DNA of 64,000 bases from contig CAWJMR010000021.1 of NCBI GenBank assembly GCA_963843965.1, positions 37,176-101,175 of the forward strand, in the 5' to 3' direction. Of this stretch, positions 11,111 to 26,912 are shown piece after piece. The stretch's first letter is position 1; every line of letters starts with the position of its first letter. Made by a program: the position numbers and the translations under genes. The notes under the pieces were generated by a model. It saw only the letters and a list, made by a program, of their open reading frames with translations. It searched no databases and had not been told where the DNA came from. This DNA comes from an uncultured Gemmatimonadaceae bacterium. GTDB taxonomy: Bacteria; Gemmatimonadota; Gemmatimonadetes; Gemmatimonadales; Gemmatimonadaceae.

Positions 11111-11787
11111 GCGTGGCATGGCGGCGGGTCCGCGCGGTAGCGTGGAAAGACCTGACGGCGGAGCGGCGCACCAAGGCCAACTTCAATGCAGTCGTCGCGA
11201 TGGCAGCGATGATCCTGCTGCTCTTCGGTTTTGCGCTCGGGCCCGACGCCGAGGCGCTGCGGAACGCCGCGGCCGGCGTATTGTGGCTCACGATTCTGTT
11301 CAGCGGCGTGCTGGCGTTCAACCGGTCGTATCAGCTCGAGTTGGAAGCGGGTGCGCTCGAACAGTTGTTGCTGTACCCTGGCGAGCGATGGACGATCTAC
11401 GTGGGGAAGTTGCTGGCCAACCTCACCTTCGTATTTCTGATGGAGCTCATCGCGCTTCCGCTCACGGGGGTGCTGTACCACGTGGCCTTCCCCGAGCAGT
11501 GGCTCGCGGTGCTTGGTGTGCTGGTGCTGGGCACGGTCGGCTTCGTGTCGCTCGGGACGTTGTATGCGGCCATGGCGAGTCGGAGCCGCTCGCGCGAAGT
11601 GCTGTTGCCGTTACTGCTCTTTCCCATGCTCGTGCCGGTGCTGATCGCGGCCAGCGGCGCCACCGCCGCCCTGCTGGTCGGCGATATCATGGGGGACAGC
11701 GCCGCCTGGATTCGCCTGCTTGCGGTGTTCGATGTGATCTTTCTGATCGGATCGACCTGGGCGTTTCCTTTCGTCATCGAAGGCTGA
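11107..11787 (+). CDS. ccmB: Haem exporter permease CcmB
   Basis: 226-aa polytopic membrane protein lying between ccmA and ccmC. Confidence 0.8.
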   Translation: MSVAWRRVRAVAWKDLTAERRTKANFNAVVAMAAMILLLFGFALGPDAEALRNAAAGVLWLTILFSGVLAFNRSYQLELEAGALEQLLLYPGERWTIYVGKLLANLTFVFLMELIALPLTGVLYHVAFPEQWLAVLGVLVLGTVGFVSLGTLYAAMASRSRSREVLLPLLLFPMLVPVLIAASGATAALLVGDIMGDSAAWIRLLAVFDVIFLIGSTWAFPFVIEG

Positions 11788-11798
11788 ATCACCTGTCC

Positions 11799-12512
11799 AT
11801 GACTTCACGGACCATCGAACTCACTCCACGCGCGACGTGGCTGACGGCACTGACCTGGTTGGCGCCGATTTTCCTCGTCATGTCGCAGGCCTATTTCATC
11901 ATGGCATCGGCCCCGGACCGCGACATGGGGCACTTACAGAAGATCATGTACGTGCATGTCCCTGCGGCCTGGAATGCGTTTCTGGCGTTCCTGTTCGTCT
12001 TCATACAGAGCGTGCGGTATCTCGCGACGCGCGACGAGCGTGCTGACCTCTTGGCGGCGGCTGGCGCCGAGGTCGGCGCCGTGCTCACCGGACTCACGCT
12101 GGTTCTGGGCTCCATCTGGGGACGCCCCACGTGGGGGGTGTGGTGGACGTGGGACGCGCGGCTCACCTCGACCGCGGTGCTGTTTCTGGTGTACGTGGGG
12201 TATCTCGCGCTGCGCGGCCTCACCGATGATCCCGAGCGTCGGGCACGCTGGAGCGCTGCCGTGGGCATTCTCGGCGCGCTGAACGTGCCCATCGTGTACA
12301 TGTCGGTGAAATGGTGGCGGACGTTGCATCAGATGCAGTCCACGCCGAGTACGGTCGATCCGACCTACGCGTGGGGGCTGCGTCTGAACGCCATCGCGTT
12401 TCTGCTGGTGCTCATCGTGTTCATCGCGTATCGGCATCGCGGACTCGTTGCGGAGTTCGTGCTCGAACGGCGGCTGGACGAAGCCGCGCTCACCCGGAGG
12501 ACGCAACGATGA
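11799..12512 (+). CDS. ccmC: Haem exporter / haem lyase subunit CcmC
   Basis: In-frame ATG at 11799 inside the long ORF 11118..12512 (MTSRTIELTP...). Trp-rich haem-handling motif WGRPTWGVWWTWDARL. Confidence 0.85.
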   Translation: MTSRTIELTPRATWLTALTWLAPIFLVMSQAYFIMASAPDRDMGHLQKIMYVHVPAAWNAFLAFLFVFIQSVRYLATRDERADLLAAAGAEVGAVLTGLTLVLGSIWGRPTWGVWWTWDARLTSTAVLFLVYVGYLALRGLTDDPERRARWSAAVGILGALNVPIVYMSVKWWRTLHQMQSTPSTVDPTYAWGLRLNAIAFLLVLIVFIAYRHRGLVAEFVLERRLDEAALTRRTQR

Positions 12513-12661: not shown

Positions 12662-13170
12662 GTGATGCTCCGAACGATCCGATGATCGATGTTGCGTCGA
12701 ACGCGCCGCGCTATACACCGTCGCCCTCGCGCAAACCCGTCGCCATCGCCGCGATCGTGGTGCTGGTCAGCGCCTTCGCCTATCTCGCCTACGGCGGCGT
12801 CGAGGAGAATCTGGTGTACTTCCTCACACCGAATGAGTTGGTGGCCAAGGGGGCAAAGGCCGTCGACCGACCGGTTCGTCTTGGCGGACAGGTCGTGCCC
12901 GGCTCGGTGCAGTGGAACGCCGATGCGTTGGACCTCCGCTTCCGCGTCACCGACGGCACGCGCGAAGTCGTGGTGCATTCGTCCGGGGCGCCGCCGCAGA
13001 TGTTCCGCGCCGGCATCGGTGTGGTTGTCGAGGGCAAGTACACGCGGAACGGCGTCTTCGAATCGCATAGCCTCATGGTGAAGCATTCCAACGAGTATCG
13101 CGCGCCCGTGGCCGGTGAGAAGCATCCGGATCGGCTCGACAAGACGCTGATCCGGAGTTCCGGCGCGTGA
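12658..13170 (+). CDS. ccmE: Haem chaperone CcmE
   Basis: 170 aa, N-terminal anchor, OB-fold-like body, C-terminal haem-binding context ...LMVKHSNEYRAP. Confidence 0.85.
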   Translation: MSDAPNDPMIDVASNAPRYTPSPSRKPVAIAAIVVLVSAFAYLAYGGVEENLVYFLTPNELVAKGAKAVDRPVRLGGQVVPGSVQWNADALDLRFRVTDGTREVVVHSSGAPPQMFRAGIGVVVEGKYTRNGVFESHSLMVKHSNEYRAPVAGEKHPDRLDKTLIRSSGA

Positions 13171-15125
13171 TTCGTATTCTTGGGCTCGCGGCCGTCTGGG
13201 TCGCGCTTGGGATGTCGGTCGCCGGCATTTTCGCGGCGATCTGGGGGCTGACCCGACAGCGCGCTGAACTGGTCACGAGTGCCTTTCAGACCGTCTACGT
13301 CAACTTCGCGCTCTTGACCGTAGCCGTGGCAGCGATGATCTACGCGCTCGTCACGCACGATTTCAGTATCGGTTACGTGGCGCAGGTCGGCAGTCGCAAC
13401 ACGCCGGTGTTCTACACGGTCATCTCGCTCTGGGGCGCGCTCGAAGGCTCGATCCTCTTCTGGGGATGGGTCCTCGCGATGTACAGCGCGGTGGTGGTGT
13501 GGAGCAATCGACAGCGGGAAGGCGGGCTCGTGCCGTGGGCCGCGGTCGCGCTGCTCACCATCTGCCTGTTCTTCTACATTCTGCTGGTCGGACCGGCCAA
13601 TCCGTGGCACCTCGTGTCGCCCACGCCGGCCGATGGCCCGGGGCCGAATCCGCTGCTGCAGAATCACATTCTGATGGCGGTTCATCCGCCGCTGCTCTAT
13701 CTCGGCTACGTGGGCATGGCGGTACCGTTCGCCTTTGCGATCGGCGCGCTGCTCGCCGGCGAGATTCACAGCGCCGACTGGATCAAGCTGACCCGTCGCT
13801 GGACGCTCAGCGCGTGGGCGTTTCTTTCGCTGGCCATCATCGCCGGCATGTGGTGGTCGTACGAGGTTCTTGGCTGGGGCGGCTACTGGGCGTGGGATCC
13901 CGTCGAGAACGCGTCGTTCATGCCGTGGCTCACGGCCACGGCTTTCCTGCACTCGGTCATGGTGCAGGAGCGGCGCGGCATGCTGAAGCTGTGGAATGTG
14001 AACCTGATCGTGACCACGTTCCTGCTCACGATTCTCGGCACCTTCCTCACGCGGTCCGGCATCATCTCCTCGGTGCACGCGTTCACGACCGGTACGATCG
14101 GCTACTACTTCCTGGCGTTCATTGCGTTCGCGCTGATCGTGTCGCTCGTGTTGGTGGCCGGCAACAGCGAAGGACTCCGGAGTGAAGGCCATCTCGACGC
14201 GGCGGCATCACGTGAGACCGTGTTCCTGTTCAACAATCTGTTTCTCACCGGCTTCACCTTCGTGGTGGTGCTCGGCACGCTGTTCCCGCTCGTCGCGGAA
14301 GCGTTCAAAGGCGTGAAGGTCACGGTCGGCGCGCCGTTCTTCAACAAGATGACGATCCCGATCTGCGTCGCGCTGCTGTTCTTGATGGGCGTCGGCCCGT
14401 CGCTGCCGTGGAAGGCAACGAGCCGCGAGCACTTGCGGAAGATGTTCATCCTGCCCGCTGGCGTGGCGCTCGGTATCGTGGTGCTCGCGCTCGCGCTCGG
14501 AATGCGCGACGTGTACGGTATGCTGGCGTTCGCGTTCGCGGGCTTCGCGATCGTGTGCAACGTGCGGGAGTATGCAATCGGCGTACAGGCGCGCCGCCGT
14601 GCGCACGGTGAGGCCGTACCCGTTGCCTTCGTGCGTTTGGTGGCCGCGAATCGCCGACGCTACGGTGGCTATGTCGCGCACATGGGAATCATCACGGTGG
14701 CCGCCGCCATCACGGCGTCGTCGAGCTTCCGCTTCGAGCGTGAGGCAACGCTCAAGCCGGGGCAGGTGATGCCGGTGAAGGGCGACCTGTCGGTGCGCCT
14801 GAAATCGATGTGGGGCAAGGACGAGCCGCAGCGTGAGGTGGTCGGCGCCGATGTGGAGATCCTTCGCAACGGCAAAGTGGTCGGCATGCTCGATCCACGC
14901 ATGAACTTCTACCGGTCGCAGGATCAGCCGGTGCCGACGCCGGCGGTGCGTAGCCGTCCGGCGGGCGACGTGTACATCAACCTCATGGCGTATACCCCCG
15001 ATGGACAGTCGGCGACGTTGCGGGTGATCGTCGAACCGTTCGTGCCGTGGATCTGGTTCGGCGGATTGGTCGTCGCACTTGGGGCTGTGGTCTCAGCATG
15101 GCCGGCGAGGAGGCGGGCGGTATGA
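13167..15125 (+). CDS. ccmF: Cytochrome c haem lyase subunit CcmF
   Basis: 652-aa polytopic protein with the Trp-rich motif WWSYEVLGWGGYWAWDPVEN. GTGA overlap with ccmE. Confidence 0.9.
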   Translation: MIRILGLAAVWVALGMSVAGIFAAIWGLTRQRAELVTSAFQTVYVNFALLTVAVAAMIYALVTHDFSIGYVAQVGSRNTPVFYTVISLWGALEGSILFWGWVLAMYSAVVVWSNRQREGGLVPWAAVALLTICLFFYILLVGPANPWHLVSPTPADGPGPNPLLQNHILMAVHPPLLYLGYVGMAVPFAFAIGALLAGEIHSADWIKLTRRWTLSAWAFLSLAIIAGMWWSYEVLGWGGYWAWDPVENASFMPWLTATAFLHSVMVQERRGMLKLWNVNLIVTTFLLTILGTFLTRSGIISSVHAFTTGTIGYYFLAFIAFALIVSLVLVAGNSEGLRSEGHLDAAASRETVFLFNNLFLTGFTFVVVLGTLFPLVAEAFKGVKVTVGAPFFNKMTIPICVALLFLMGVGPSLPWKATSREHLRKMFILPAGVALGIVVLALALGMRDVYGMLAFAFAGFAIVCNVREYAIGVQARRRAHGEAVPVAFVRLVAANRRRYGGYVAHMGIITVAAAITASSSFRFEREATLKPGQVMPVKGDLSVRLKSMWGKDEPQREVVGADVEILRNGKVVGMLDPRMNFYRSQDQPVPTPAVRSRPAGDVYINLMAYTPDGQSATLRVIVEPFVPWIWFGGLVVALGAVVSAWPARRRAV

Positions 15126-16764: not shown

Positions 16765-18366
16765 TCAAAAGCGCCAGCTGAGTCCCGCGTAGTTCTGCAA
16801 CAGGCGGTCGGAGGGTCCAATTTCGCGGTACGACGAGAACATCACGTACCACGAGCGGCCAATGCCCGCGTCGGCGTCGAGCCCCACCCACGTGGTCTTC
16901 GTCGGGGTCATGCCATCGAACGCGCGCTGGTCGTCACGTCGGCCCACGGTCGCTTCGATACGCAGTCGATTCCACGGGTCGATCTCGAGCGATGCAGAGG
17001 TCAGCGTGCCGCGCACGGTGGGTCCGTCGTAGCGCGTGGCGCGGGCCCGGGCGCCGATCTGCAGCGGCGAGAGGCGTGAGATAGAGAGTGTCGCCGTCTG
17101 CGACTGGTTGCGCCCCGCGGTCACGCCATCGCTCGTGCGCGAGTCGACGCTCAGATACATGTGCGGAATCGAGAGGGACGCACCGCCCCAGTAGCCTCGG
17201 CGGAAGGCGTCATCGAAGGCGATGTCCGGCGTCAGGAAGTCGCGGTACAAGCGGACGCTGCGTCGACTGTCGTAGCCGCCCTGCAGCGAGAGCGCGCGCG
17301 TGACGGCGACGCGCAACGTGGCGAAGGTGGAGGTGGGCGAGATGGCCTGACCGCCTTCGGCATCCTTGCGCCAGCCGCGATTGACGTCGAGCTCCTGCGT
17401 GGCATACAGCGAGAAGACCGGCGTGACCACCATCGTCGAGGCCAGCGCGAATTCACGGTTGATGCCGGCGGTGGCGTACGATCCGATGGCCCCCAGCGTT
17501 GTCTGTACGATTGTGCCGCTGCCCGTCGAGTTGTGCCACTGCACCCACGTGCCGCCCTCACGGATATCAGCCGAGGGCTGGAAGTTCGCGTAGTCGGGCT
17601 GCGTGCCACCGAGCACGCCGAATCGCCAATGCTTGCGGTCGACGTCGACCGTGACGCCGTCGAAGAAGCCGAGTGGTGACAGGACCGTGGACAGCTGCCG
17701 GCCGACACTCACGCGCACCGGGAATTGTCCGACACCCTGATACTCCAGCATGGACTGGTACACGCGCGTGCTGCCGTCGGAGCGTCCGCTCCCCGAGGTC
17801 TGTCGGTGCGCGCGGGCGTCGATCACGAGTCCGATCGGCGAGTCGCTCAGGCGATGGCCCTCGATCCGGAGATCGACCGCCGGCTGGGTGAGCCGGCCAC
17901 TGGCTCCGGTGCCGGTTTGTAGATCCATGTAGCGCAGGCCGACGCGGCCCGTCATCGCGCGCGCTTTGCGCGGCGTTCGCGGTGTCGCGCCACCGGCGCC
18001 GGCCGCCGTACCAGTGGCTGCCGCCCCGCTCGCACTCGCGATGATCTCCGGCGCGGCCAGAAAACGCACGCTGTCACCGAGCACGATCGGACCGCCGCGG
18101 ATCGCGCGTCCCGAGGCGCGCGATGACGATACGAACTGAATCTCGAGCACCGCGACGACCGAGTCTTTTCGCATCACGTCGGCCTTCGCCCCTTCGCGAA
18201 GGCCGGAGCTGGTGCCCGCGTCGATGTACACGGATTCGCCGCTGAGATACGACACGCGCGTCCACTGCCAGCGCGGCGCGCTGGGGGCAGCCTGTGCCCC
18301 GAGCGCGTTGCCGACGACGCACGCGACCGCGAGGGCCGCGCTCAGGCCGAGCCGCGCGGGTGACAT
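16765..18366 (-). CDS. Predicted outer-membrane beta-barrel protein with a ~90-aa N-terminal soluble domain
   Basis: Signal peptide MSPARLGLSAALAVACVVGNALGAQA (ATG 18364-18366; ORF track extends to 18573). Alternating amphipathic strand pattern with many Y/R/G/T/S. C-terminus ...NYAGLSWRF ends in Phe, as in OM barrel signals. Confidence 0.65.
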   Translation of the reverse strand: MSPARLGLSAALAVACVVGNALGAQAAPSAPRWQWTRVSYLSGESVYIDAGTSSGLREGAKADVMRKDSVVAVLEIQFVSSSRASGRAIRGGPIVLGDSVRFLAAPEIIASASGAAATGTAAGAGGATPRTPRKARAMTGRVGLRYMDLQTGTGASGRLTQPAVDLRIEGHRLSDSPIGLVIDARAHRQTSGSGRSDGSTRVYQSMLEYQGVGQFPVRVSVGRQLSTVLSPLGFFDGVTVDVDRKHWRFGVLGGTQPDYANFQPSADIREGGTWVQWHNSTGSGTIVQTTLGAIGSYATAGINREFALASTMVVTPVFSLYATQELDVNRGWRKDAEGGQAISPTSTFATLRVAVTRALSLQGGYDSRRSVRLYRDFLTPDIAFDDAFRRGYWGGASLSIPHMYLSVDSRTSDGVTAGRNQSQTATLSISRLSPLQIGARARATRYDGPTVRGTLTSASLEIDPWNRLRIEATVGRRDDQRAFDGMTPTKTTWVGLDADAGIGRSWYVMFSSYREIGPSDRLLQNYAGLSWRF

Positions 18367-21300
18367 GAGAGGCAGGCGATGCTTTCGTAGCGGTAACCGC
18401 TTCGGCCCTGGTGCTGGCCGTCGGTCTTCGACTTCAGGTGGCACGACAGACAGGTGAACTCCCGATAGTTCGTGCTGTTCGTGTGACACTGTGTACACGA
18501 CGTCCACGTCTGGCGATGCTTGCCGCTGTAGATCGGGAACCACGGATCGTGATTGAAGGTGGCACCCAGCCAACGCGTGGTGGTATGGCAGCTCTCACAG
18601 GTAGTGGGGAACATCGCCGTGCGGTGATTCGGATTCGTCGTCGCGTTGTACGCTGGCGTGTGGCACGCGCTGCACACCGTGGGCTTTCCGCGATACACAC
18701 CATCGTTGTGACAGGCCAGACAGGTCTGTGCAATGTGCGCGCCCGTGAGCGGGAACCTGGTCGCGCTGTGATTGTACGCGGCCGGCGTCCACGCGGTGAC
18801 CGAGTGGCAGCTCTCACAGGTCGTGGGGAATGCCACGCTGCGATGATTCGGCTGCGACGTGGCATCGAACTTGGCCTGATGGCAGCTGACACACGTGGTC
18901 GGCTTGCCGCGATACACGCCATCACCATGGCAGCCCAGGCAACTCACCGCCCGATGTCCGCCCGCAAGCGGGAAGCGCGTGGCGTTGTGGTCGAAGGTCG
19001 CGGGCGTCCACGCGTTCACCGAATGACAGCTCTCGCAGGTATTCGGGAATCCTGACGCGCGATGATCGGGACGCGTTGTCGTGTTGAACTTCGTCTGATG
19101 ACAGCTGGCGCAATCGGTCGGCTTGCCACGATACACGTTGTCGGCGTGACAGCCCGCGCAACTCACCGCCCGATGTCCGCCAGCCAGAGGGAATCGCGTC
19201 GCGTTGTGGTCGAAGGTCGCGGGCGTCCACGCGTTCACCGAATGACAGCTCTCGCAGGTATTCGGGAAGCCCGACGCGCGATGATCGGGACGCGTCGTCG
19301 TGTTGAACTTCGTCTGATGACAGCTCGCGCAATCGGTCGGCTTGCCACGATACACGTTGTCGGCGTGACAGCCCGCGCAACTCACGGCACGATGTCCGCC
19401 AGCCAGAGGGAATCGCGTCGCGTTGTGGTCGAACGTGGCCGGCGCCCACGCATTCACGTTGTGGCAGCTCTCGCACGTGTTGGGGAAGCCGGATGTGCGA
19501 TGGTTCGGGTTCGTGGTCGCGTTGAACTTGGTTTGGTGGCAGCTGGCGCAATCGGTCGGCTTGCCACGATACACGTTGTCGGCGTGACAGCCCTGACAGC
19601 TTACGGCGCGGTGTCCGCCGGCGAGAGGGAAGCGGGTGGCGTTGTGGTCGAAGGTGGCGGGCTTCCAGGCGTTCACCGAGTGGCAGCTCTCGCACGTGCT
19701 CGGGAATGCAGAGGCGCGGTGATCCGGTGATTTCGCGCCATCATACTCGCGCTGATGGCACGACGCGCAGATACTCGGCTTGCCGGCGTACACCCGATCG
19801 TTGTGACAGGCGAGACAGGTGGCACTGATGTGGCGGCCGAGCAGCGGGAAGCGTGTCTTGTTGTGATCGTAGGTCGCGCCCTGCCACTGCGTGGTGCTGT
19901 GGCAGCTCTCACAGGCCGCGCCGAACTGGGCCGGGCCATGATGCGGGTTGGTGGTCGCGTCGAACTTGGCCTGATGGCAGCTGATGCATGTGGTCGGCTT
20001 GCCGCGGTACACCCCGTCGCTATGACAGGCGAGACAGCTGGCCGCGCGGTGTCCCCCGGTCAGCGGGAACCGGGTGTTCGCATGATCGAACGTGCCGGGC
20101 AGCCACGCGTTCACGGAGTGGCAGCCCTCGCAGGTCGTCGGAATACCCGCTGTCCGATGATTCGGTGTGGTCGTGGCGTTGAACTTGGCCTGGTGACACG
20201 ACACGCATGTCGTCGGCTTGCCGCGATAGACGCCGTCGCCATGGCAGCCCTGACAGGACACCGCGCCGTGGCCGCCGGTGAGCGGGAATCGGGTGGTGGC
20301 GTGATCGAAGCGCGCACCGGGCCATGCCGACGTGGTGTGGCAGCTTTCGCAGTTGGCGGAGAAACCCGCCGCCGCATGCGGTGGCGTGCGCGTACCGTCG
20401 AATTCCTTCTGATGACACGCGACGCAGGCCGTCGGCTTGCCGGCGTACACGCGATCGCTGTGACACGCGAGACAGGCTGCCGGCGTGTGCTTGCCGGTGA
20501 GCGGGAAGCGCGTCGTCTTGTGGTCGAACGGCGTGCCACGCCACTGCGTGGTGGTGTGACAGCTGGCGCAGGCGGTGCCGAACTTCGCCGGTCCGTGATG
20601 CGGCGTCGTGGTGGCGTCGAACTTGGCTTGATGACAGCTCACGCACGCCATCGGCTTCCCGCGATACACGCCGTCGCTATGGCACCCCTGACACGTCACG
20701 GCCTTGTGGCCACCGGTCAGCGGGAACTTCGTCGTGGCGTGATCGAACGTGGCGCTCGTCCACGTGGTGATCGTGTGGCAGGAGGTGCACTCCTTGGGAA
20801 AGCCGGCGGCCTCGTGATTGGGCGACTTGGTCGCCTGGTACGTGGCCAAATGACACGAGGCGCAGGCGGTGCCGCGCGCCTGAAATTGCGGCTGGCCGGG
20901 TCTGGTGGCGCCGTGACATGACTCGCAGGTCGCGATCGCGTGCGCACCACGCAACGGGAATCTCGTGCCTTGATGCGTGCGCACGGCGGTGCCGCGATCG
21001 ACGAAACTGCGCGTGTTATGACAGCGCACACAGGTGGCGCCGAACTCGCCCTTGTGCGGATCGGTATGGCAGCTGGCGCACGTCGTGGGCGTCTTCTTGA
21101 AATCGAGCTGCTTGTGGCACGACAGGCAGGTCGCCCGCTCGTGCGCTCCGGAGAGCGGGAACGTCTGCTCGGCGTGACGGAACGTCGGCGCGATGCGCGC
21201 CGGCGTCCAACTGTTCGACTTATGGCAACTGGCACACGGCTCGCGCAGGGCGGTTCCATGCGGCGAAACGACGGTCGACGCCGACGACGAGGCCGTCGGC

Positions 21301-21422
21301 GCGGTCGTCGGTGAAGCCACCGGCGGTTTCGTGACGGGGCGGAGCTGCGCGTGCGCGGTGTGCGCCACAACGCACATCGCGAGCGCGGACGCCGTCGTCA
21401 GAAGCCGCCGCCAGAACGTCAT
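18342..21422 (-). CDS. Giant multihaem c-type cytochrome, 40 CxxCH motifs
   Basis: Start ATG 21420-21422 overlaps the upstream stop (ATGA) and gives the signal peptide MTFWRRLLTTASALAMCVVAHTAHAQ. Manual count gives 40 CxxCH. Ten regular 73-aa modules each carry 3 CxxCH plus 3 conserved extra His (FDH, GGH, P[ND]H). Confidence 0.9.
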   Translation of the reverse strand: MTFWRRLLTTASALAMCVVAHTAHAQLRPVTKPPVASPTTAPTASSSASTVVSPHGTALREPCASCHKSNSWTPARIAPTFRHAEQTFPLSGAHERATCLSCHKQLDFKKTPTTCASCHTDPHKGEFGATCVRCHNTRSFVDRGTAVRTHQGTRFPLRGAHAIATCESCHGATRPGQPQFQARGTACASCHLATYQATKSPNHEAAGFPKECTSCHTITTWTSATFDHATTKFPLTGGHKAVTCQGCHSDGVYRGKPMACVSCHQAKFDATTTPHHGPAKFGTACASCHTTTQWRGTPFDHKTTRFPLTGKHTPAACLACHSDRVYAGKPTACVACHQKEFDGTRTPPHAAAGFSANCESCHTTSAWPGARFDHATTRFPLTGGHGAVSCQGCHGDGVYRGKPTTCVSCHQAKFNATTTPNHRTAGIPTTCEGCHSVNAWLPGTFDHANTRFPLTGGHRAASCLACHSDGVYRGKPTTCISCHQAKFDATTNPHHGPAQFGAACESCHSTTQWQGATYDHNKTRFPLLGRHISATCLACHNDRVYAGKPSICASCHQREYDGAKSPDHRASAFPSTCESCHSVNAWKPATFDHNATRFPLAGGHRAVSCQGCHADNVYRGKPTDCASCHQTKFNATTNPNHRTSGFPNTCESCHNVNAWAPATFDHNATRFPLAGGHRAVSCAGCHADNVYRGKPTDCASCHQTKFNTTTRPDHRASGFPNTCESCHSVNAWTPATFDHNATRFPLAGGHRAVSCAGCHADNVYRGKPTDCASCHQTKFNTTTRPDHRASGFPNTCESCHSVNAWTPATFDHNATRFPLAGGHRAVSCLGCHGDGVYRGKPTTCVSCHQAKFDATSQPNHRSVAFPTTCESCHSVTAWTPAAYNHSATRFPLTGAHIAQTCLACHNDGVYRGKPTVCSACHTPAYNATTNPNHRTAMFPTTCESCHTTTRWLGATFNHDPWFPIYSGKHRQTWTSCTQCHTNSTNYREFTCLSCHLKSKTDGQHQGRSGYRYESIACLSCHPRGSA
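18600..20789. repeat. In-frame tandem array of ten 219-bp (73-aa) tri-haem modules; copies at 19038-19256 and 19257-19475 are nearly identical
   Basis: Period measured directly: gaatgacagctctcgcaggtattcggga recurs at 19021 and 19240. The two youngest copies differ at roughly a dozen positions by eye and encode an identical 73-aa peptide except for one residue in the SVNAWTP/NVNAWAP stretch region. Confidence 0.85.
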
Positions 21423-23551
21423 AGCGCGCGCCCAGATCTGGCCGTGTGACAGCTTTCGCAGGCGCGTGACACGCCGGCGTACTGGCGACGCGCCGACTCG
21501 GGCGCGGTGGCGGCCGCACTGCCCGCCGGCGCGTTGATGGGGGCGTGACACTTGGCGCAGGGCACGGTGCTGTGCGCACCAGCCAGCGGGAACCGCGTGC
21601 CCTTCTCATGATCGAACTTGTCCGCACCAGCGAATCGTGCCACGGAATGACACGACTCGCAGGCACCGCGATCCCGACGGGTCGCGAACTGCGTGCCGTG
21701 TGATTCCGCGTGGCACCCGGTGCAGCTGGCGCCGCGTGACTGCGCGAAGGGCAAGGCGGGCTGCGCCACGGCCGACAAGCGAAGGGAGCCACGGCCGGCG
21801 GTCGCGGCGAGTTCCCGGTGGCAGTCAGCGCAGGGCACTGCGCGATGGGCGCCCTCGAGCGCGTAGCCGAGGGTGGTGTGGGTGGCCGTGGTGACTGTGG
21901 AGGGGCGGAACCGTGCGGTCTGATGACAGCTGGTGCATGCCGTCGTGGCGCGCGCGCCACCGGCCACGTAGCGCCCGGCGTGCGGGTCGGCGTGACACGA
22001 CGCACAGGTCGTCTCTCCGATCGCGAACGCGAACTTCGCCCGCCCCGTGGGCAGGGTGATCGCGGGTAATCCGCGCCGATCGCTGGCATGACAGGCCGCG
22101 CAGACCGCCGTCGCATGGGCACCGTCGAGCGGCAGTTTGAACGTGGCGTGCGACGCAACCGTAATCGTGCTCGGCTTGAATCCGTTCACCGTGTGACACG
22201 ACGTGCAGCCGCCGGCGGCATTGCGCACGGCTGGCTGGTTGGCGTGGTCATCGGCGTGGCACGAGGTGCACGACTCGGTCGCCATCGTGAGCCGCACGTA
22301 CGACGCCGCTGGCACCATCAGACCAGCCGTCGTCGCGGCCGCCGTCGTCGCGGCGACGCGGGTCATGGTGTGGCAGGCCGCGCACTTCGTGCTCACATGC
22401 TTGCCTTCGAGGGGGTAGCGCGTCCGCGCGTGTTCGGCGACGGAGAAGCTCGCTGGGCTGAAGCCTGCGACTTTGTGGCAGCTCGCGCAGTCACGCGTGC
22501 GGCCTGCTTCGCCACGATGCACGTCCGCGTGGCAGCTGGCACAGCTGGTGAACGCGGGCGTCGGGCGGTCGTTGTTCTTGCCGTGGCACGCGGCACAGCC
22601 GACCCGCGCATGACGCCCGGCCAGCGGGTATCGCGTGGCGTCGTGATTGAAGCCCTTCTTGTCGATCGCCTCCCAGCGCGTGGTCTCGTGGCACGAGCTG
22701 CAGGATTCCTTGATGCGTCCTTTGTGCGGATCGCTGTGGCAGTCGTTGCACTTCGCGAACGTGATGGGACGGAACAGCGGAATCGTCTTCCCCTCAGCGT
22801 CTCGCTTGAGCGGAAGGCGATTCGAACGGTGACACCCGTCGCATTTCACGTCGGTGTGCTTGCCGGTGAGCGGATAGCGGGCGTCGTCGTGATTGAACGC
22901 CGGCGCCGGTGCCCAGGCTTTCGCGTTGTGGCACTGCTGACAGCCGCCCTTGAGCGCCCCCTCGTGAATATCCTCACGTTGATGGCAGCTGGCGCACGCC
23001 GTCTCCAACCCGACCCACGGCGTGCCCGTCTTGCGTTTGGAGATGGCCGCCATCGCCGGCGCGCGAAACGCCGTCTTGTGGCACGACTCGCATTTGGCCT
23101 CGACGTGCTTTCCTTCGAGCGCCCATCCGGCTTGTCGGTGGTCGAACCGGTTCTTCCCGCCCGCCGGCCACGACACCATCGCGAAGTCTTCGCCGGCGTG
23201 ATCCGGATGACAGCTGGCGCAGTTCGTGCGCTCGGCCGCCGGCAGCTTGGCGTGATAGCCCCGCTTCGCGTCGATCAGCGCCTTGACGTCCTTGTGGCAG
23301 CTGAGACAGGACGGCGCCATCGCGGCACCGCGCGTGAGCGAATGACATTGCACGCACTGCGCTGCGCCTTCGAGACTCTTGTGCGCGCGCGCCAGCGGGC
23401 CCGGCGAGATCTGGGCCGACAGCAGTGTGGGACGCGACAGCACGAGCATCCCTAGCATGGCGAAAACCAGCGCGACCACACGCCGCAGCCGCGTGCGCCA
23501 ACGGTGCGCCGGAAGGCACACAGCGGAGAGCGGACGCGGCATGTCATTCAT
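21419..23551 (-). CDS. Multihaem c-type cytochrome, 23 CxxCH motifs
   Basis: 710 aa. Signal/anchor ...RRVVALVFAMLGMLVLSRPTLLSAQ. Manual count gives 23 CxxCH, many in CxxCH-x-D/E-x-H-x-G contexts. The start ATG overlaps the upstream TGA (ATGA at 23548-23551). Confidence 0.9.
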   Translation of the reverse strand: MNDMPRPLSAVCLPAHRWRTRLRRVVALVFAMLGMLVLSRPTLLSAQISPGPLARAHKSLEGAAQCVQCHSLTRGAAMAPSCLSCHKDVKALIDAKRGYHAKLPAAERTNCASCHPDHAGEDFAMVSWPAGGKNRFDHRQAGWALEGKHVEAKCESCHKTAFRAPAMAAISKRKTGTPWVGLETACASCHQREDIHEGALKGGCQQCHNAKAWAPAPAFNHDDARYPLTGKHTDVKCDGCHRSNRLPLKRDAEGKTIPLFRPITFAKCNDCHSDPHKGRIKESCSSCHETTRWEAIDKKGFNHDATRYPLAGRHARVGCAACHGKNNDRPTPAFTSCASCHADVHRGEAGRTRDCASCHKVAGFSPASFSVAEHARTRYPLEGKHVSTKCAACHTMTRVAATTAAATTAGLMVPAASYVRLTMATESCTSCHADDHANQPAVRNAAGGCTSCHTVNGFKPSTITVASHATFKLPLDGAHATAVCAACHASDRRGLPAITLPTGRAKFAFAIGETTCASCHADPHAGRYVAGGARATTACTSCHQTARFRPSTVTTATHTTLGYALEGAHRAVPCADCHRELAATAGRGSLRLSAVAQPALPFAQSRGASCTGCHAESHGTQFATRRDRGACESCHSVARFAGADKFDHEKGTRFPLAGAHSTVPCAKCHAPINAPAGSAAATAPESARRQYAGVSRACESCHTARSGRAL

Positions 23552-24990
23552 CCCGCCTTGGCAACGTCACGCGGAATGGGCACGTTTTTCTCGACGATGC
23601 GCACACCGATCTTCTCCAGAAACGCCGACGGTGCTTCACCGCCGATGCGCACGATCACCGTATCGTTCGGCAAAATCGCCGTCGCGCCATGATCGTCGAT
23701 GACGACGACGTCACGCCGGATTTCCCGCACCTGGCTCTGCAGCATCGGAATGATGCGTCCCGCCGCGATCGCGCGATCGAGCTTCTCCTGATTGCGTGGC
23801 TTGATGCGCGAGAACGTCTCGCCGCGATAGCTCAGGCGGACTTCGGTATTCGGTTGATTCGCGAGTCCGAGCGCCGATTCCACCGCGCTGTCGCCGCCAC
23901 CCACCACCATCACCTTCTGACCGGCAAACGCTTCCATCTCCACGATGTCGAAATACACCTTGTCGCTGTCTTCACCGGGGATGCCGAGGCGTCGTGGCGT
24001 GCCGCGACGGCCCATGGCGAGCACCACGCGGCGCGCCCGGTAGCGCGCGCCGTCGGACATCACATCGAAGAAGGCGCCATCGCGCACCACGCGATCCACT
24101 TTGACGCCGGTGCGCACCTCGAGGCCGGTGTTGGCCACGATCGTCTCCCACACTTCAAGCAGCGTTTCCTTCGATGCATCGGCAATCCAGAGATCACCGT
24201 ACAGCGGGATGGAGACCGGCTCGGCGAGCAGCAGCTTCTTGCGCGGATACTTGCGGACCGTGTCCGACAGCGTGCCCTGCTCGAGCACGACATAACGGAG
24301 GTGCGAGCGAAGCGCTTCCAAGCCCGCGCTCAACCCGGCCGGTCCGGATCCGATGATGCACACGTCGAAGGCCTCCAGATCGCCATCGGTGCGCGGCTCG
24401 CAGCTGGGCAACTGCGTCGCGATGTGTTCGATGGCCATCTTGCCCTCGTTGATCGCGTTCTTGATCAGTCCGCGACCACCGAGTTCGCCCACGATGTAGA
24501 TGCCCGGCACGTTCGACTGGAAATGCGCGTCGATCAGCGGCACCTCCACGCGATTGACGGCGGCACCCGTGGTCACGAAGATGCCGCCCACCGGGCAGGC
24601 GGCGACGCACTCGCCATGCCCGACACACAAGGCATCATCCACCACGGCCAGCTTGCCGCGCATCGTGATGGCCCCGACTTCTGGGCAGGACGCGACGCAG
24701 GTGCCACAGCCCACGCAGAGGTCCGCCCGCACCATGGCCTTCGGGAGCGCGTCGCCGACCGATGCGGCGCGACCGGCGGCAACGGGCGCCGACACGACCT
24801 CGAAGAGTTGCTGCGCGATACCACACCCGGAGCAGTACGTGCCGGTCACCGGAACCGCCGTCCCGCACCGCGCGCACGGCCGCGTCGCCACTGGCCGCGC
24901 GGGCGCATCGGCGGGCGGCGCGCTCCCGCGCAGATGCCACCACATGAACGCGGCCGTCAGCGCGAAGAAACCGAGGGTGGTCAGCAGCAT
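23548..24990 (-). CDS. Membrane-anchored zinc-ribbon / 2x Fe-S ferredoxin / FAD-NAD(P)H oxidoreductase
   Basis: N-terminal TM (LLTTLGFFALTAAFMWW), zinc ribbon CARCGTAVPVTGTYCSGCG, one canonical CVGCGTCVASCP motif and one His-substituted CVGHGECVAACP motif. Then two dinucleotide folds (DVCIIGSGPAGLSAG; KVMVVGGGDSAVESA), thioredoxin-reductase/YpdA-like. Confidence 0.8.
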   Translation of the reverse strand: MLLTTLGFFALTAAFMWWHLRGSAPPADAPARPVATRPCARCGTAVPVTGTYCSGCGIAQQLFEVVSAPVAAGRAASVGDALPKAMVRADLCVGCGTCVASCPEVGAITMRGKLAVVDDALCVGHGECVAACPVGGIFVTTGAAVNRVEVPLIDAHFQSNVPGIYIVGELGGRGLIKNAINEGKMAIEHIATQLPSCEPRTDGDLEAFDVCIIGSGPAGLSAGLEALRSHLRYVVLEQGTLSDTVRKYPRKKLLLAEPVSIPLYGDLWIADASKETLLEVWETIVANTGLEVRTGVKVDRVVRDGAFFDVMSDGARYRARRVVLAMGRRGTPRRLGIPGEDSDKVYFDIVEMEAFAGQKVMVVGGGDSAVESALGLANQPNTEVRLSYRGETFSRIKPRNQEKLDRAIAAGRIIPMLQSQVREIRRDVVVIDDHGATAILPNDTVIVRIGGEAPSAFLEKIGVRIVEKNVPIPRDVAKAG

Positions 24991-24999
24991 GTCAGGCGC

Positions 25000-25929
25000 T
25001 CACCAGAACCACGTGGCACCCATCACGATGACCACGACCACGTGGATCGTGACCGCGATCAGGGCAGTGAGCGCGAACGGCATGTGGGCTACATGCCAGA
25101 AGCGAAACACGCGCTGCGTGGCTTCGAGCATGCGCGACTGATCGGTCAGCGCCATTTCACGCGACGCGAGCTTCACCGCACGAGAAATGGCGCGCCGGTC
25201 GACACCCGGGCGCGCAGCCCACGTCGAGGCGAGCCGACGCACGTGGACAAACCGCCGCAGGTCATTCAACACCAGGCGCTCGAGCACCTGGACCACACTC
25301 GTGGCCGGCGCCTGCTCGACCGGCGTGATCGCGAGTCGCACGGTATTCACCGAATCCCCGAGGGCCGCGGCAATCTCGGCCAGCAGCGCGTCGCGCTCGC
25401 CGGCCACTTCGTCGCGCGAGAGCTCCACGCCGCTGCGCGCGCGCGGGATCCGGACATAGAGGTACCGGCCGACCACGCCGCTCGCGCACACCACCAGCAT
25501 CGCGCCGAACCCCAGACCGATCACGCCATCGGCCCGCCAGGCGGCGTGAATCGTGAGCAGCAAGGGTAGCCCGATCGCGGTGGTCACGTGCACATCGAGC
25601 CATCGCCCGATCGCGCCGGTAAAGGCGAGCGCCCGCCAGCGCTTCCGGAGGGGATAGAGCCAGAGGAACACGAAGATGACGAACGCGAGGATACCGGCGG
25701 TTTGGCCGATCGTGCCGGACGGCCGGAGCAGCGCGTGCAGCGCGTGCCGCGGCCGCGCGTTCAACGGCGCCAAATAGTACGACGCGCCCGCCAGGTTGAT
25801 CATCGTCAACGCGCTCAAGAGCAGCGTGACGGGCACGCCATCCCATCGGCTCCGTGCCTTCGCCGCGCGCGCCGCCGTAGGGACAGGACGCGTGGCGGTA
25901 CGCGGAATTGAAGGAGCGGGCGCGGTCAT
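25000..25929 (-). CDS. Polytopic membrane protein with two H-x13-H pairs (putative di-haem b-type electron carrier)
   Basis: About five predicted TM helices. One helix reads DVHVTTAIGLPLLLTIH and another reads WHVAHMPFALTALIAVTIH, each with His residues 14 positions apart. A ~130-aa soluble loop lies between them. 9-nt gap to the flavoprotein gene. An alternative start lies at 25974. Confidence 0.6.
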   Translation of the reverse strand: MTAPAPSIPRTATRPVPTAARAAKARSRWDGVPVTLLLSALTMINLAGASYYLAPLNARPRHALHALLRPSGTIGQTAGILAFVIFVFLWLYPLRKRWRALAFTGAIGRWLDVHVTTAIGLPLLLTIHAAWRADGVIGLGFGAMLVVCASGVVGRYLYVRIPRARSGVELSRDEVAGERDALLAEIAAALGDSVNTVRLAITPVEQAPATSVVQVLERLVLNDLRRFVHVRRLASTWAARPGVDRRAISRAVKLASREMALTDQSRMLEATQRVFRFWHVAHMPFALTALIAVTIHVVVVIVMGATWFW

Positions 25930-26294
25930 GGCGGAGAGATCAACGGAGGAGAGTCTATGCGGCTGGTGACGCAAAAAGCACCAGTCGGAACTAAAGGGGA
26001 GTCGTAAATACGCCTTTTGTCCCAGTTTCTATCCGAACTTATACGGATGGGCGCGGTAGGTATGTAACGTCCATCACGGTTTTCCTTCGGGTTTTTCAAT
26101 CTCGACAATAAGACGTCTTGTCCCTCACCGACGTCACGCTCGCCGCGGGGTCGCGAGACAGTCTGCGCGCCCGGCGTGACGGTGGACCGTCCCATACATC
26201 GTCATACCACGTCGCACCAAACGACTCGCCTAGCACGGCCCGTGCAGTAGACTTGTACCTCTGCCCGGACCTTCCAATCAGCCAGGATCTGCCT

Positions 26295-26912
26295 ATGCGC
26301 TCCGCCTCGTCCCTCCTCGCCCGTCGCGCCACTGCCGCGCTCGGAGCCGCCTTCCTGCTGGCCGCGTGCAGCAAGTCCGACGATGCCGCCATGAAGGACT
26401 CGGCGATGGCGGCCGATTCCGCCGCTGCGCTCACGCTCGACTCCACCGCGACGGCTGGCACCAGCGCTGGCGTGACCGCGAAGGTGGTCGATGCGGGCGG
26501 CCGCGAACTCGGCGTGCTGACGTTTGCCGACGCCGGCGCCGCGATCTCGGTGGACGGCACGCTGCGCGGCCTGCCGCCGGGTGTGCACGGCATGCATATC
26601 CATGCGGTTGGTCGTTGCGACGCGCCGGATTTCGCCAGCGCCGGACCGCACTGGAGCCCCACGCCCAAGCAGCACGGCAGCACCAACGAAGCCGGCCCGC
26701 ATCACGGCGATCTTATGAACCTTACGGTCGGCGCCGACAGCAGCGTCGTCGTGAAGATGTCGACGCCGGCCGGTTCGCTGCGTGGTGAGAATCCGCTGCT
26801 CGACGCCGATGGCGCGTCCATCGTGATTCATGCCACCGCCGACGACTACAAGACCGACCCGTCGGGCAACTCGGGTGCGCGTATCGCGTGCGGCGTGGTG
26901 TCGGGCTCCTGA
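26295..26912 (+). CDS. sodC: Cu/Zn superoxide dismutase, lipoprotein form
   Basis: MRSASSLLARRATAALGAAFLLAACS lipobox; ...GVHGMHIHAVGRCD...GPHW...HHGDL...IVIHATADDYKTDPSGNSGARIACGVV. The in-frame ATG at 26295 lies within ORF 26118..26912. Confidence 0.85.
   Translation: MRSASSLLARRATAALGAAFLLAACSKSDDAAMKDSAMAADSAAALTLDSTATAGTSAGVTAKVVDAGGRELGVLTFADAGAAISVDGTLRGLPPGVHGMHIHAVGRCDAPDFASAGPHWSPTPKQHGSTNEAGPHHGDLMNLTVGADSSVVVKMSTPAGSLRGENPLLDADGASIVIHATADDYKTDPSGNSGARIACGVVSGS

Follow-up and report, generated by a model that had tools for sequence, protein, structure and literature searches.

A putative di-haem membrane protein paired with an iron-sulfur flavoprotein as a candidate entry point into PCC3-type cytochrome conduits

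Operon layout and features of the inner-membrane protein

The window analysed in this study is a 64,000-nucleotide stretch of DNA from an uncultured Gemmatimonadaceae bacterium (contig CAWJMR010000021.1) with a G + C content of 63-72%, and its nearest relatives are metagenome-assembled genomes (MAGs) of Gemmatimonadales. A minus-strand operon of five genes (16765-25929) was identified in the window; it codes for an inner-membrane protein (IMP), an iron-sulfur (Fe-S) flavoprotein, a 23-haem cytochrome c, a 40-haem cytochrome c, and a putative beta-barrel (Table 1). The present work deals with the products of the first two genes, which the original prediction had suggested might form a split NOX-like electron pump feeding periplasmic multihaem cytochromes.

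The IMP open reading frame (ORF) spans 25000-25974, and a start at its methionine 16 (25929) is backed by homologues, giving a protein of 309 amino acids (aa), to which the IMP residue numbers used here refer. The database call for the identical sequence (P0003, 267 aa) begins at an internal methionine downstream of this start; since the first transmembrane (TM) helix is dropped in that call, the predicted topology would be inverted. The flavoprotein gene starts exactly 9 nucleotides past the IMP stop, as originally noted. The flavoprotein stop overlaps the start of the 23-haem cytochrome gene within an ATGA, and the likely start of the 40-haem cytochrome gene (methionine 44 of its ORF) by its coordinates overlaps the stop of the 23-haem gene in the same manner. 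These stop/start overlaps suggest translational coupling in the operon.

Table 1. Coordinates of the operon genes and of the main sequence features of the IMP and the flavoprotein
Feature	Position in window	Strand	Description
Inner-membrane protein (IMP)	25000..25929	(-)	309 aa, five TM helices, putative di-haem b, PCC3 type
IMP TM3 motif W110-x3-H114-x13-H128	25546..25602	(-)	Sequence and conservation
IMP TM4 motif S150-G-V-V-G154 (SGxxG)	25468..25482	(-)	Matches PCC3/PCC4 IMP signature
IMP TM4-TM5 helical segment, about 115 aa	25105..25452	(-)	Predicted cytoplasmic (hydropathy and AlphaFold2)
IMP TM5 motif W278-H279-x2-H282-x13-H296	25042..25098	(-)	Sequence and conservation
Fe-S flavoprotein, membrane-anchored	23548..24990	(-)	480 aa
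Flavoprotein N-terminal TM anchor, aa 2-22	24925..24987	(-)	Predicted helix
Flavoprotein CxxC...CxxC zinc-ribbon-like insert, C39/C42/C53/C56	24823..24876	(-)	Only in Gemmatimonadota type A flavoproteins
Flavoprotein ferredoxin-type dicluster domain, aa 86-135	24586..24735	(-)	CxxCxxCxxxCP + CxxHxxCxxxCP
Flavoprotein FAD 'GD'-type segment NVPGIYIVGELGG...NAINEGK, aa 151-195	24406..24540	(-)	Precedes first Rossmann motif
Flavoprotein FAD + NAD(P)H dinucleotide-binding domains, aa 208-470	23581..24369	(-)	YpdA/low-Mr TrxR/TrxR-type FNR fold
Multihaem cytochrome c, 23 CxxCH	21419..23551	(-)	710 aa; presumed periplasmic
Multihaem cytochrome c, 40 CxxCH	18342..21422	(-)	About 1026 aa; presumed extracellular
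Putative outer-membrane beta-barrel	16765..18366	(-)	About 533 aa

The IMPs of PCC3 and PCC4 clusters have been described as proteins of about 300 aa, annotated as hypothetical, with five TM helices, an SGxxG motif on TM4, and a W-x3-H-x13-H motif on both TM3 and TM5 (He et al., 2017, Front Microbiol 8:1584). The window IMP agrees with this signature in its 309 aa, its five helices, SGxxG on TM4, and W-x3-H-x13-H on TM3 and TM5. Also encoded in PCC3 clusters are a porin and two cytochromes, one periplasmic with about 21-27 haems and the other extracellular, larger, and repetitive (He et al., 2017; Hoover et al., 2023), with published medians of 21 and 34 haems (He et al., 2017). The content of the window cluster, with its 23-haem and 40-haem cytochromes and putative barrel, is that of PCC3. 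The PCC3 IMP, itself known from prediction only, therefore resembles the window IMP in size, helix number, both motifs, and cytochrome and porin neighbours. PCC3 and PCC4 IMPs share no significant overall similarity with each other (He et al., 2017), and we assign the window IMP to the PCC3 type by this signature and its gene context.

The IMP, its motifs, the analogy to the ferric-reductase domain (FRD), and the PCC3 cluster type are thus already known, from a description that is purely bioinformatic. He et al. (2017) likened the IMP to the FRD and to cytochrome b and proposed that it holds two b haems and is linked to quinones. The motifs and the FRD comparison of the original prediction had thus been published in 2017, and it is the pairing with the flavoprotein that looks new. 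No biochemical study of a PCC3 IMP since 2017 was found in the literature, and the protein is called hypothetical in every source that names it.

The two H-x13-H stretches of the window IMP read HVTTAIGLPLLLTIH (H114 to H128) and HMPFALTALIAVTIH (H282 to H296). Both fall in predicted helices according to hydropathy and the AlphaFold2 model (helices 113-129 and 245-308). Hydropathy analysis gave four peaks, which together with the His-bearing TM3 make five helices, and the AlphaFold2 model (mean pLDDT 79) placed the TM helices at residues 32-47, 73-95, 113-129, 135-159, and 245-308. Between TM4 and TM5, it contains helices at 172-190, 194-201, and 212-238 and the beginning of the helix 245-308; this segment is, speculatively, a candidate docking surface. 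Lysine and arginine residues number 32 in the predicted cytoplasmic segments versus 4 in the periplasmic ones. Hydropathy, the positive-inside rule, and the model agree on a predicted topology of five helices with the N-terminus inside and the C-terminus outside. By the distribution of lysine and arginine, H114 and H282 would be close to the cytoplasmic face, with H128 and H296 close to the periplasmic one, so that the paired histidines are predicted to lie inside the membrane at opposite faces, as had been expected of them. Within each pair, the histidines are 14 residues apart, which on an ideal helix separates them by about 21 Å and puts them in opposite leaflets, pointing nearly the same way. 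This spacing and predicted placement are the geometry of a di-haem b bundle.

The probability of finding at least two H-x13-H motifs in the IMP by chance was 0.011 (200,000 sequence shuffles), and conservation of the motifs, rather than this statistic, is the decisive evidence. Exactly two H-x13-H motifs were present in 117 of 120 close homologues, and two W-x3-H-x13-H motifs in 117 of 119 close homologues, 95 of 112 cluster representatives, and 113 of 117 homologues from the FCB group. A profile search against 1.84 billion cluster representatives returned 2336 relatives of the IMP at E ≤ 0.001. Among the 98 full-length cluster representatives, H114, H128, H282, and H296 were present in 97, 98, 93, and 94 sequences, respectively, and S150, G151, and G154 were kept in 96-98. 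In an alignment of 80 sequences of approximately 30-40% identity, the four histidines were among just ten invariant columns, and they are conserved in homologues down to about 28% identity. These results bear out the two His-bearing helices first noticed in the IMP. The protein has no CxxCH motif. Two exceptional relatives were noted. In P0001, a cluster representative that is 91% identical to the window IMP and comes from a 2.9-kb ENA contig, tyrosine replaces H114; natural variation, pseudogene status, or an error of sequencing may explain this. The second H-x13-H motif is missing from P0120.

Linkage of the IMP to a flavoprotein and anatomy of the flavoprotein

To survey the linkage of the two genes, 80 species-representative genome loci, almost all from Gemmatimonadota, were compared. 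The order IMP, flavoprotein, cytochrome, cytochrome, barrel was found in 45 loci. Another 26 (type B; e.g., L018, L030, L055, and L064) contained the IMP, cytochromes, and barrel in succession, with a flavoprotein paralogue divergently oriented about 0.4-1.5 kb upstream; this paralogue is approximately 44% identical, TM-anchored, and devoid of the zinc ribbon. Two more loci had a TM-anchored flavoprotein paralogue 3-5 kb upstream of the IMP gene. Three loci were cut by contig ends, which leaves 77 informative ones, and a flavoprotein was linked to the IMP in 73 of these.

The linkage extends to a distant clade of IMPs whose members, from Marinimicrobia/Fidelibacterota, Zixibacteria, Krumholzibacteriia, and the 'FCB group', share about 28-31% identity with the window IMP. 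All seven loci of distant relatives that were looked up had genes for the five components, with a protein of about 530 aa besides the IMP, the flavoprotein, and two multihaem cytochromes. The flavoprotein gene preceded the IMP gene in four of them, each time ending 4 nucleotides into it; the IMP gene came first in two, and a TPR gene lay between them in one. The same cassette is carried by plasmid pEMTOL02 of the cultured Bacteroidota member Emticicia oligotrophica DSM 17448 (L088; NC_018749.1, 81299-89995), where its products are named in RefSeq as hypothetical, NAD(P)-binding domain protein, two cytochrome c3 family proteins, and hypothetical; the accessions of its IMP and flavoprotein are WP_015031196 and WP_015031197. 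The plasmid location is a hint of horizontal mobility. The linkage that was asked for elsewhere is thus conserved across phyla, and its persistence through sequence divergence and gene rearrangement is the main argument that the IMP and the flavoprotein work together.

The plasmid pEMTOL02 is 100 kb long and non-mobilizable, and genes for a sigma-70 family sigma factor, a Rieske protein, a YceI protein, and a DUF5777 barrel adjoin the cassette. Four database proteins that look like fusions of the IMP and the flavoprotein (P0265, P0256, P0253, and P0251) were rejected as frameshifted calls, having Arg/Pro/Gly-rich out-of-frame stretches and no TM5 motif. They come from high-GC contigs and could mislead surveys of domain architecture.

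The IMP-flavoprotein pair is not described in any paper found in the literature. A metagenome survey of 2026 mentions in one sentence that ferredoxin-NADP+ reductase (FNR) genes lie near 7 of the 11 clusters of one porin-cytochrome group. Likewise not found in the literature, and apparently new, are the pairing on a phylum-spanning scale, the anatomy of the flavoprotein, and the hypothesis of a quinone-independent entry of electrons from NAD(P)H.

All the flavoprotein motifs listed in the original prediction are present and invariant among 118 homologues: the TM helix (residues 2-22), C39xxC42...C53xxC56, C92xxC95xxC98xxxC102P, C122xxH125xxC128xxxC132P, and the glycine-rich motifs of the two dinucleotide-binding folds, GSGPAG (214-219) and GGGDSA (364-369). 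The hydrophobic N-terminal segment is retained in the type B paralogues and in flavoprotein homologues from other phyla. In some homologues, the zinc-ribbon-like part has precomputed matches to PF12773 and PF13240. The ferredoxin domain was matched by Fer4_10 with 38.1 bits (cutoff 25.5) and by Fer4_7 with 35.4 bits (cutoff 27). Its CxxHxxCxxxCP motif, in which His takes the place of the second Cys, is kept in the flavoproteins of every lineage sampled. The first Fe-S motif lacks its second Cys in most of the flavoproteins sampled from other phyla (L081-L085, L087, and L088), as in CIGTAACVPACP, and lineages may differ in whether they form [3Fe-4S] or [4Fe-4S] clusters. A His-ligated [4Fe-4S] cluster typically marks a surface-exposed site where electrons pass between molecules, such as the distal cluster of [NiFe] hydrogenases, and the His-containing cluster of the flavoprotein would, by this likeness, face the membrane haem.

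Residues 208-470 of the flavoprotein matched Pyr_redox_3 and Pyr_redox_2. The best matches in sequence and structure were YpdA/Bdr, low-Mr thioredoxin reductase (TrxR), and TrxR-type FNR (7a76, 7a7b, 3f8p, 3ab1, and 6gar), with which the protein shares the plan of a flavoprotein with two dinucleotide-binding domains. Residues 151-195 align with the FAD 'GD' segment, which in TrxR, lipoamide dehydrogenase, and trypanothione reductase follows the NAD(P)H-binding domain. In the flavoprotein, this segment reads VGE, and its position before the first Rossmann motif is conserved across all lineages sampled, an apparent circular permutation. The absence of a redox-active Cys, the added TM anchor, the fused dicluster ferredoxin with a Cys3-His motif, and the permuted FAD segment set the protein apart from YpdA, TrxR, and FNR alike, and the functionally nearest known arrangement appears to be an FNR fused to its own ferredoxin.

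The closest matches being to YpdA/Bdr and TrxR, the flavoprotein could be a thiol-disulfide reductase of one of these types with an unrelated role, for example, as a source of reductant for haem attachment or in envelope protection. Some homologues are indeed named 'thioredoxin reductase' or 'putative YpdA family bacillithiol system oxidoreductase', and cytochrome c maturation genes are near the cluster in the window and adjoin it in L086 and Emticicia. The scores against TIGR04018 (YpdA; 162.9 bits, cutoff 339.9) and TIGR01292 (low-Mr TrxR; 72.7 bits, cutoff 343) were nevertheless far under the cutoffs. No invariant Cys occurs past residue 132 among the 118 homologues, the flavin and NAD(P)H domains included, and the CxxC of TrxR is absent. 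The first glycine motif reads GSGPAG or GAGPAG in all lineages sampled, and that of YpdA is GGGPCG. The lack of a redox Cys and the GSGPAG motif make a role in thiol reduction unlikely, and the fused Fe-S domain points to one-electron transfer instead. We therefore hold a thiol reductase to be very improbable, and membership in the YpdA type, which would have undone the original idea, did not materialize.

Proposed electron path and competing explanations

In our reading, a PCC3-type conduit leads electrons from NAD(P)H to an extracellular acceptor, with the IMP and the flavoprotein as its end in the cytoplasmic membrane, and we estimate the probability of this at roughly one half. The flavoprotein, its body in the cytoplasm and tethered by its single N-terminal helix, would oxidize NAD(P)H at a TrxR/FNR-like FAD site, and single electrons would then pass through two Fe-S clusters, one of them with a Cys3-His ligand set, to the haem on the cytoplasmic side of the IMP. 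The IMP itself would be a five-helix wire with two b haems, of which one, held between H114 and H282, would lie toward the cytoplasm and the other, held between H128 and H296, toward the periplasm. The latter haem would hand electrons to the 23-haem cytochrome, from which they would cross the outer-membrane barrel, reach the 40-haem cytochrome, and end on an extracellular acceptor, for example metal oxides or humics. The whole path would thus run from NAD(P)H via FAD, Fe-S clusters, two b haems, and 63 c haems to the outside. It would be electrogenic and not proton-pumping, a redox vent rather than an energy-conserving step, and the conduit may serve as a redox-balancing sink that does not need the quinone pool. 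The motifs and their conservation, the predicted topology, the fold class of the flavoprotein, and the conserved linkage are what the analysis shows; from these we infer that the IMP binds haem, which Fe-S clusters are present, that the two proteins form a complex, that NAD(P)H is the donor, the outward direction, and the independence from quinones.

A stronger form of this proposal, which we put forward as tentative, is that the two proteins make up an NAD(P)H:multihaem-cytochrome oxidoreductase that is dedicated and needs no quinone, occurs widely in Gemmatimonadota, Bacteroidota, Marinimicrobia, Zixibacteria, and Krumholzibacteria, and is a bacterial analogue of NOX assembled from unrelated parts. 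If so, cytoplasmic NAD(P)H would have a direct and electrogenic vent that probably conserves no energy. Such a vent would also bear on how abundant soil and sediment heterotrophs (Gemmatimonadota and the FCB phyla among them) balance their redox state with metal oxides, humics, or electrodes. The widespread orphan PCC3 IMP would gain its first concrete partner, and hence a testable function, on the basis of comparative genomics alone. The plasmid-borne cassette of the cultured E. oligotrophica DSM 17448 is a possible experimental system.

A number of observations count against the proposed path. Haem b binding by the IMP is deduced from motifs alone. The window IMP had no Pfam match at E ≤ 0.1 and no NCBIfam match; no relatives were found among Protein Data Bank (PDB) sequences by phmmer or profile search, which returned only coiled-coil noise; and a Foldseek search of its AlphaFold2 model against the PDB gave a best E value of 0.59, with no cytochrome among the matches listed. 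Alignment of the IMP family profile by hhalign with Escherichia coli MsrQ and YodB yielded probabilities of 0.5% and below 1%, respectively, single-sequence templates making this a weak test. Adjacency of the IMP and flavoprotein genes is no proof of a complex. Three or four informative loci (among them L006, L014, and probably L015) have the IMP and cytochromes and no flavoprotein within 8 kb, so the IMP may have another partner. The components of proteobacterial PCC3 have been listed without a flavoprotein, and the IMP was proposed to exchange electrons with quinones (He et al., 2017; Hoover et al., 2023). As for other partners in L006 and L014, an upstream peptidase, a P450 fragment, a sulfatase, and a QueG-like protein were considered, and none was an obvious candidate.

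The haem assignment from motifs and the want of a family assignment or of any significant structural match to a cytochrome b would also suit an IMP whose histidines bind another metal or are structural, the protein serving in the assembly or export of the cytochromes and not in redox chemistry. We consider this hardly probable. Two H-x13-H pairs at matching depth on parallel helices are the classical arrangement of a di-haem b protein, established for cytochrome b and the FRD, as He et al. (2017) noted too. When the IMP family was compared with Pfam at E < 1, DUF4405 was matched by 59 of 80 members, Ferric_reduct by 35, Ni_hydr_CYTB by 24, and PepSY_TM by 4, and unrelated families by at most three members each. 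These four families belong to what we take to be one Pfam clan of two-haem cytochromes. Other IMPs with H-x13-H motifs accompany multihaem cytochromes and 'other redox proteins' in Proteobacteria. Remote as they are, the recurrent matches of the IMP family were to di-haem cytochrome b families only, which speaks against a protein without haem.

The best DUF4405 match in the family had an E value of 5.7e-6, and one relative, P0427, exceeded the cutoff (28.6 vs 26.7). Ferric_reduct (PF01794) stayed below its threshold in the relatives (14-19 bits, cutoff 28), always aligning the same N-terminal part of the IMP with profile positions 1 to about 60. The local hhalign alignment with MsrQ puts its W-x3-H-x12-H over the TM5 motif of the IMP, a coincidence without statistical weight. 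In line with the di-haem clan that includes the FRD, where paired histidines on TM3 and TM5 are spaced by 12-13 residues, the IMP carries such pairs, and they are predicted to span the bilayer. The FRD has six helices, and the IMP has five. The sub-threshold matches and the non-significant hhalign result suggest that the IMP is a distant, unassigned relative of the di-haem b superfamily and not a member of the FRD family.

The logic of the proposed path is that of NOX and of MsrQ-Fre, in which a cytoplasmic nicotinamide flavoprotein feeds two stacked b haems bound to His pairs on TM3 and TM5; for the window proteins, this arrangement is deduced here. In MsrQ-Fre, the dehydrogenase and haem domains are separate proteins. 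The likeness ends at the level of the parts. The NOX dehydrogenase is of the FNR type (FAD_binding_8/NAD_binding_6), whereas the window flavoprotein combines Pyr_redox_3/Pyr_redox_2 with Fer4 domains in a TrxR/YpdA fold. Solved structures of NOX, STEAP, and related proteins were not matched by the IMP model in Foldseek, and the PF01794 threshold was not reached. The acceptor is O2 or MsrP in NOX and MsrQ, and here it would be the chain of multihaem cytochromes. Of the split NOX that had been suggested, a di-haem protein fed by an NAD(P)H flavoprotein toward multihaem cytochromes stands as the best-supported reading, and homology with NOX is not supported; given the TrxR/YpdA-type fold with Fe-S clusters in place of an FNR-type NOX dehydrogenase, 'split NOX' is an analogy. 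The term 'pump' was unwarranted, as nothing suggests proton pumping.

The Hmc and Tmc complexes of sulfate reducers also lead electrons across the membrane through a multihaem cytochrome c in the periplasm, a cytochrome b in the membrane, and an Fe-S protein in the cytoplasm. Their membrane and Fe-S subunits are NarI/HdrE-like and HdrD-like, and they lack an NAD(P)H flavoprotein as well as a porin of the outer membrane and an extracellular cytochrome. In overall layout, they resemble the proposed path; the subunit families differ. CymA, ImcH, and CbcL/MtoC/MtrH, the reviewed entry points of extracellular electron transfer in Gram-negative bacteria, are c-type or fused b- and c-type cytochromes and have been described as oxidizing quinols or reducing quinones. 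The IMP has the same place in the pathway and differs in having no CxxCH motif and a flavoprotein partner of the nicotinamide type. If the proposed path is correct, the entry point would be unlike these quinone-drawing proteins.

The main competing explanation keeps to the published view of the IMP as a protein coupled to quinones (He et al., 2017). The IMP would be a quinol oxidase or quinone reductase, and the flavoprotein a co-regulated, separate NAD(P)H:quinone reductase or accessory enzyme that is not wired to the IMP haems. We judge this explanation to be rather unlikely, while noting that no flavoprotein is listed for proteobacterial PCC3, that some Gemmatimonadota loci have none nearby, and that the weak Pfam likeness of the IMP includes the quinone-reactive cytochromes of the b561/HydC type (Ni_hydr_CYTB). 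In the Gemmatimonadota and FCB clusters, the TM-anchored Fe-S flavoprotein is an almost constant extra component. A ferredoxin domain with the conserved His-containing motif is universal in the sampled flavoproteins. To our knowledge, NDH-2-type quinone reductases carry no Fe-S clusters, which argues against a separate quinone reductase. The two genes are tightly linked, in many cases by an overlap of stop and start codons, and the linkage persists through changes of gene order across phyla. No quinone-site motif turned up, although no search aimed at one was made. Were the module quinone-coupled after all, the finding would shrink to a lineage-specific accessory gene in a known cluster type.

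The direction of flow has its own alternative, in which electrons flow inward from Fe(II) or Mn(II), from a cathode, or from a partner cell and are used by the flavoprotein to reduce NAD(P)+ or another cytoplasmic acceptor. TrxR-type FNRs are reversible, which suits inward flow. The donors for inward flow lie near 0 to +0.4 V and NAD(P)+ at -0.32 V, which makes the transfer uphill, and the inside-negative membrane potential opposes it as well; family scans of the IMP and the flavoprotein found no bifurcation module or ion-translocating subunit that could help. Outward flow, in contrast, is favoured as being downhill from -0.32 V and aided by the membrane potential. PCC3 was reported from Alpha-, Beta-, and Gammaproteobacteria, first in Fe(II) oxidizers, and drawn as an uptake pathway (He et al., 2017; Hoover et al., 2023). 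The 2026 metagenome survey, on the other hand, judged most PCC-bearing MAGs to be heterotrophs that are likely to export electrons. Overall, inward flow appears improbable for the window cluster.

Cytochromes, barrel, and neighbouring genes

The 23-haem and 40-haem cytochromes are the sole multihaem ORFs within the window. The former has a hydrophobic N-terminus that was read as a signal peptide. The latter is built of near-identical tandem units with paired CxxCH motifs, its offset self-match being 52% identical over 946 aligned positions; this tandem structure may make the gene prone to expansion, contraction, and mis-assembly. The putative barrel protein also has a hydrophobic N-terminus read as a signal peptide and ends in ...SWRF. 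No family match was found for it, and a protein of about 520-545 aa holds the same position in the clusters of other phyla. The barrel fold of this protein is deduced from such features.

Genes for cytochrome c maturation are located on the plus strand a few kb from the cluster and encode a Cytochrom_C_asm protein (11118-12512) and a CcmF-type protein (13167-15125). In the Marinimicrobia locus L086, CcmE/CcmF genes stand directly before the cluster, and in Emticicia, ccsA does.

A Cu/Zn superoxide dismutase gene (26118-26912, plus strand; Sod_Cu E value, 1.4e-39) is divergent from the operon. A hint of superoxide chemistry taken from this gene was dropped because the adjacency recurs only in the two closest relatives (L001 and L002), and the gene is thus probably unrelated to the cluster.

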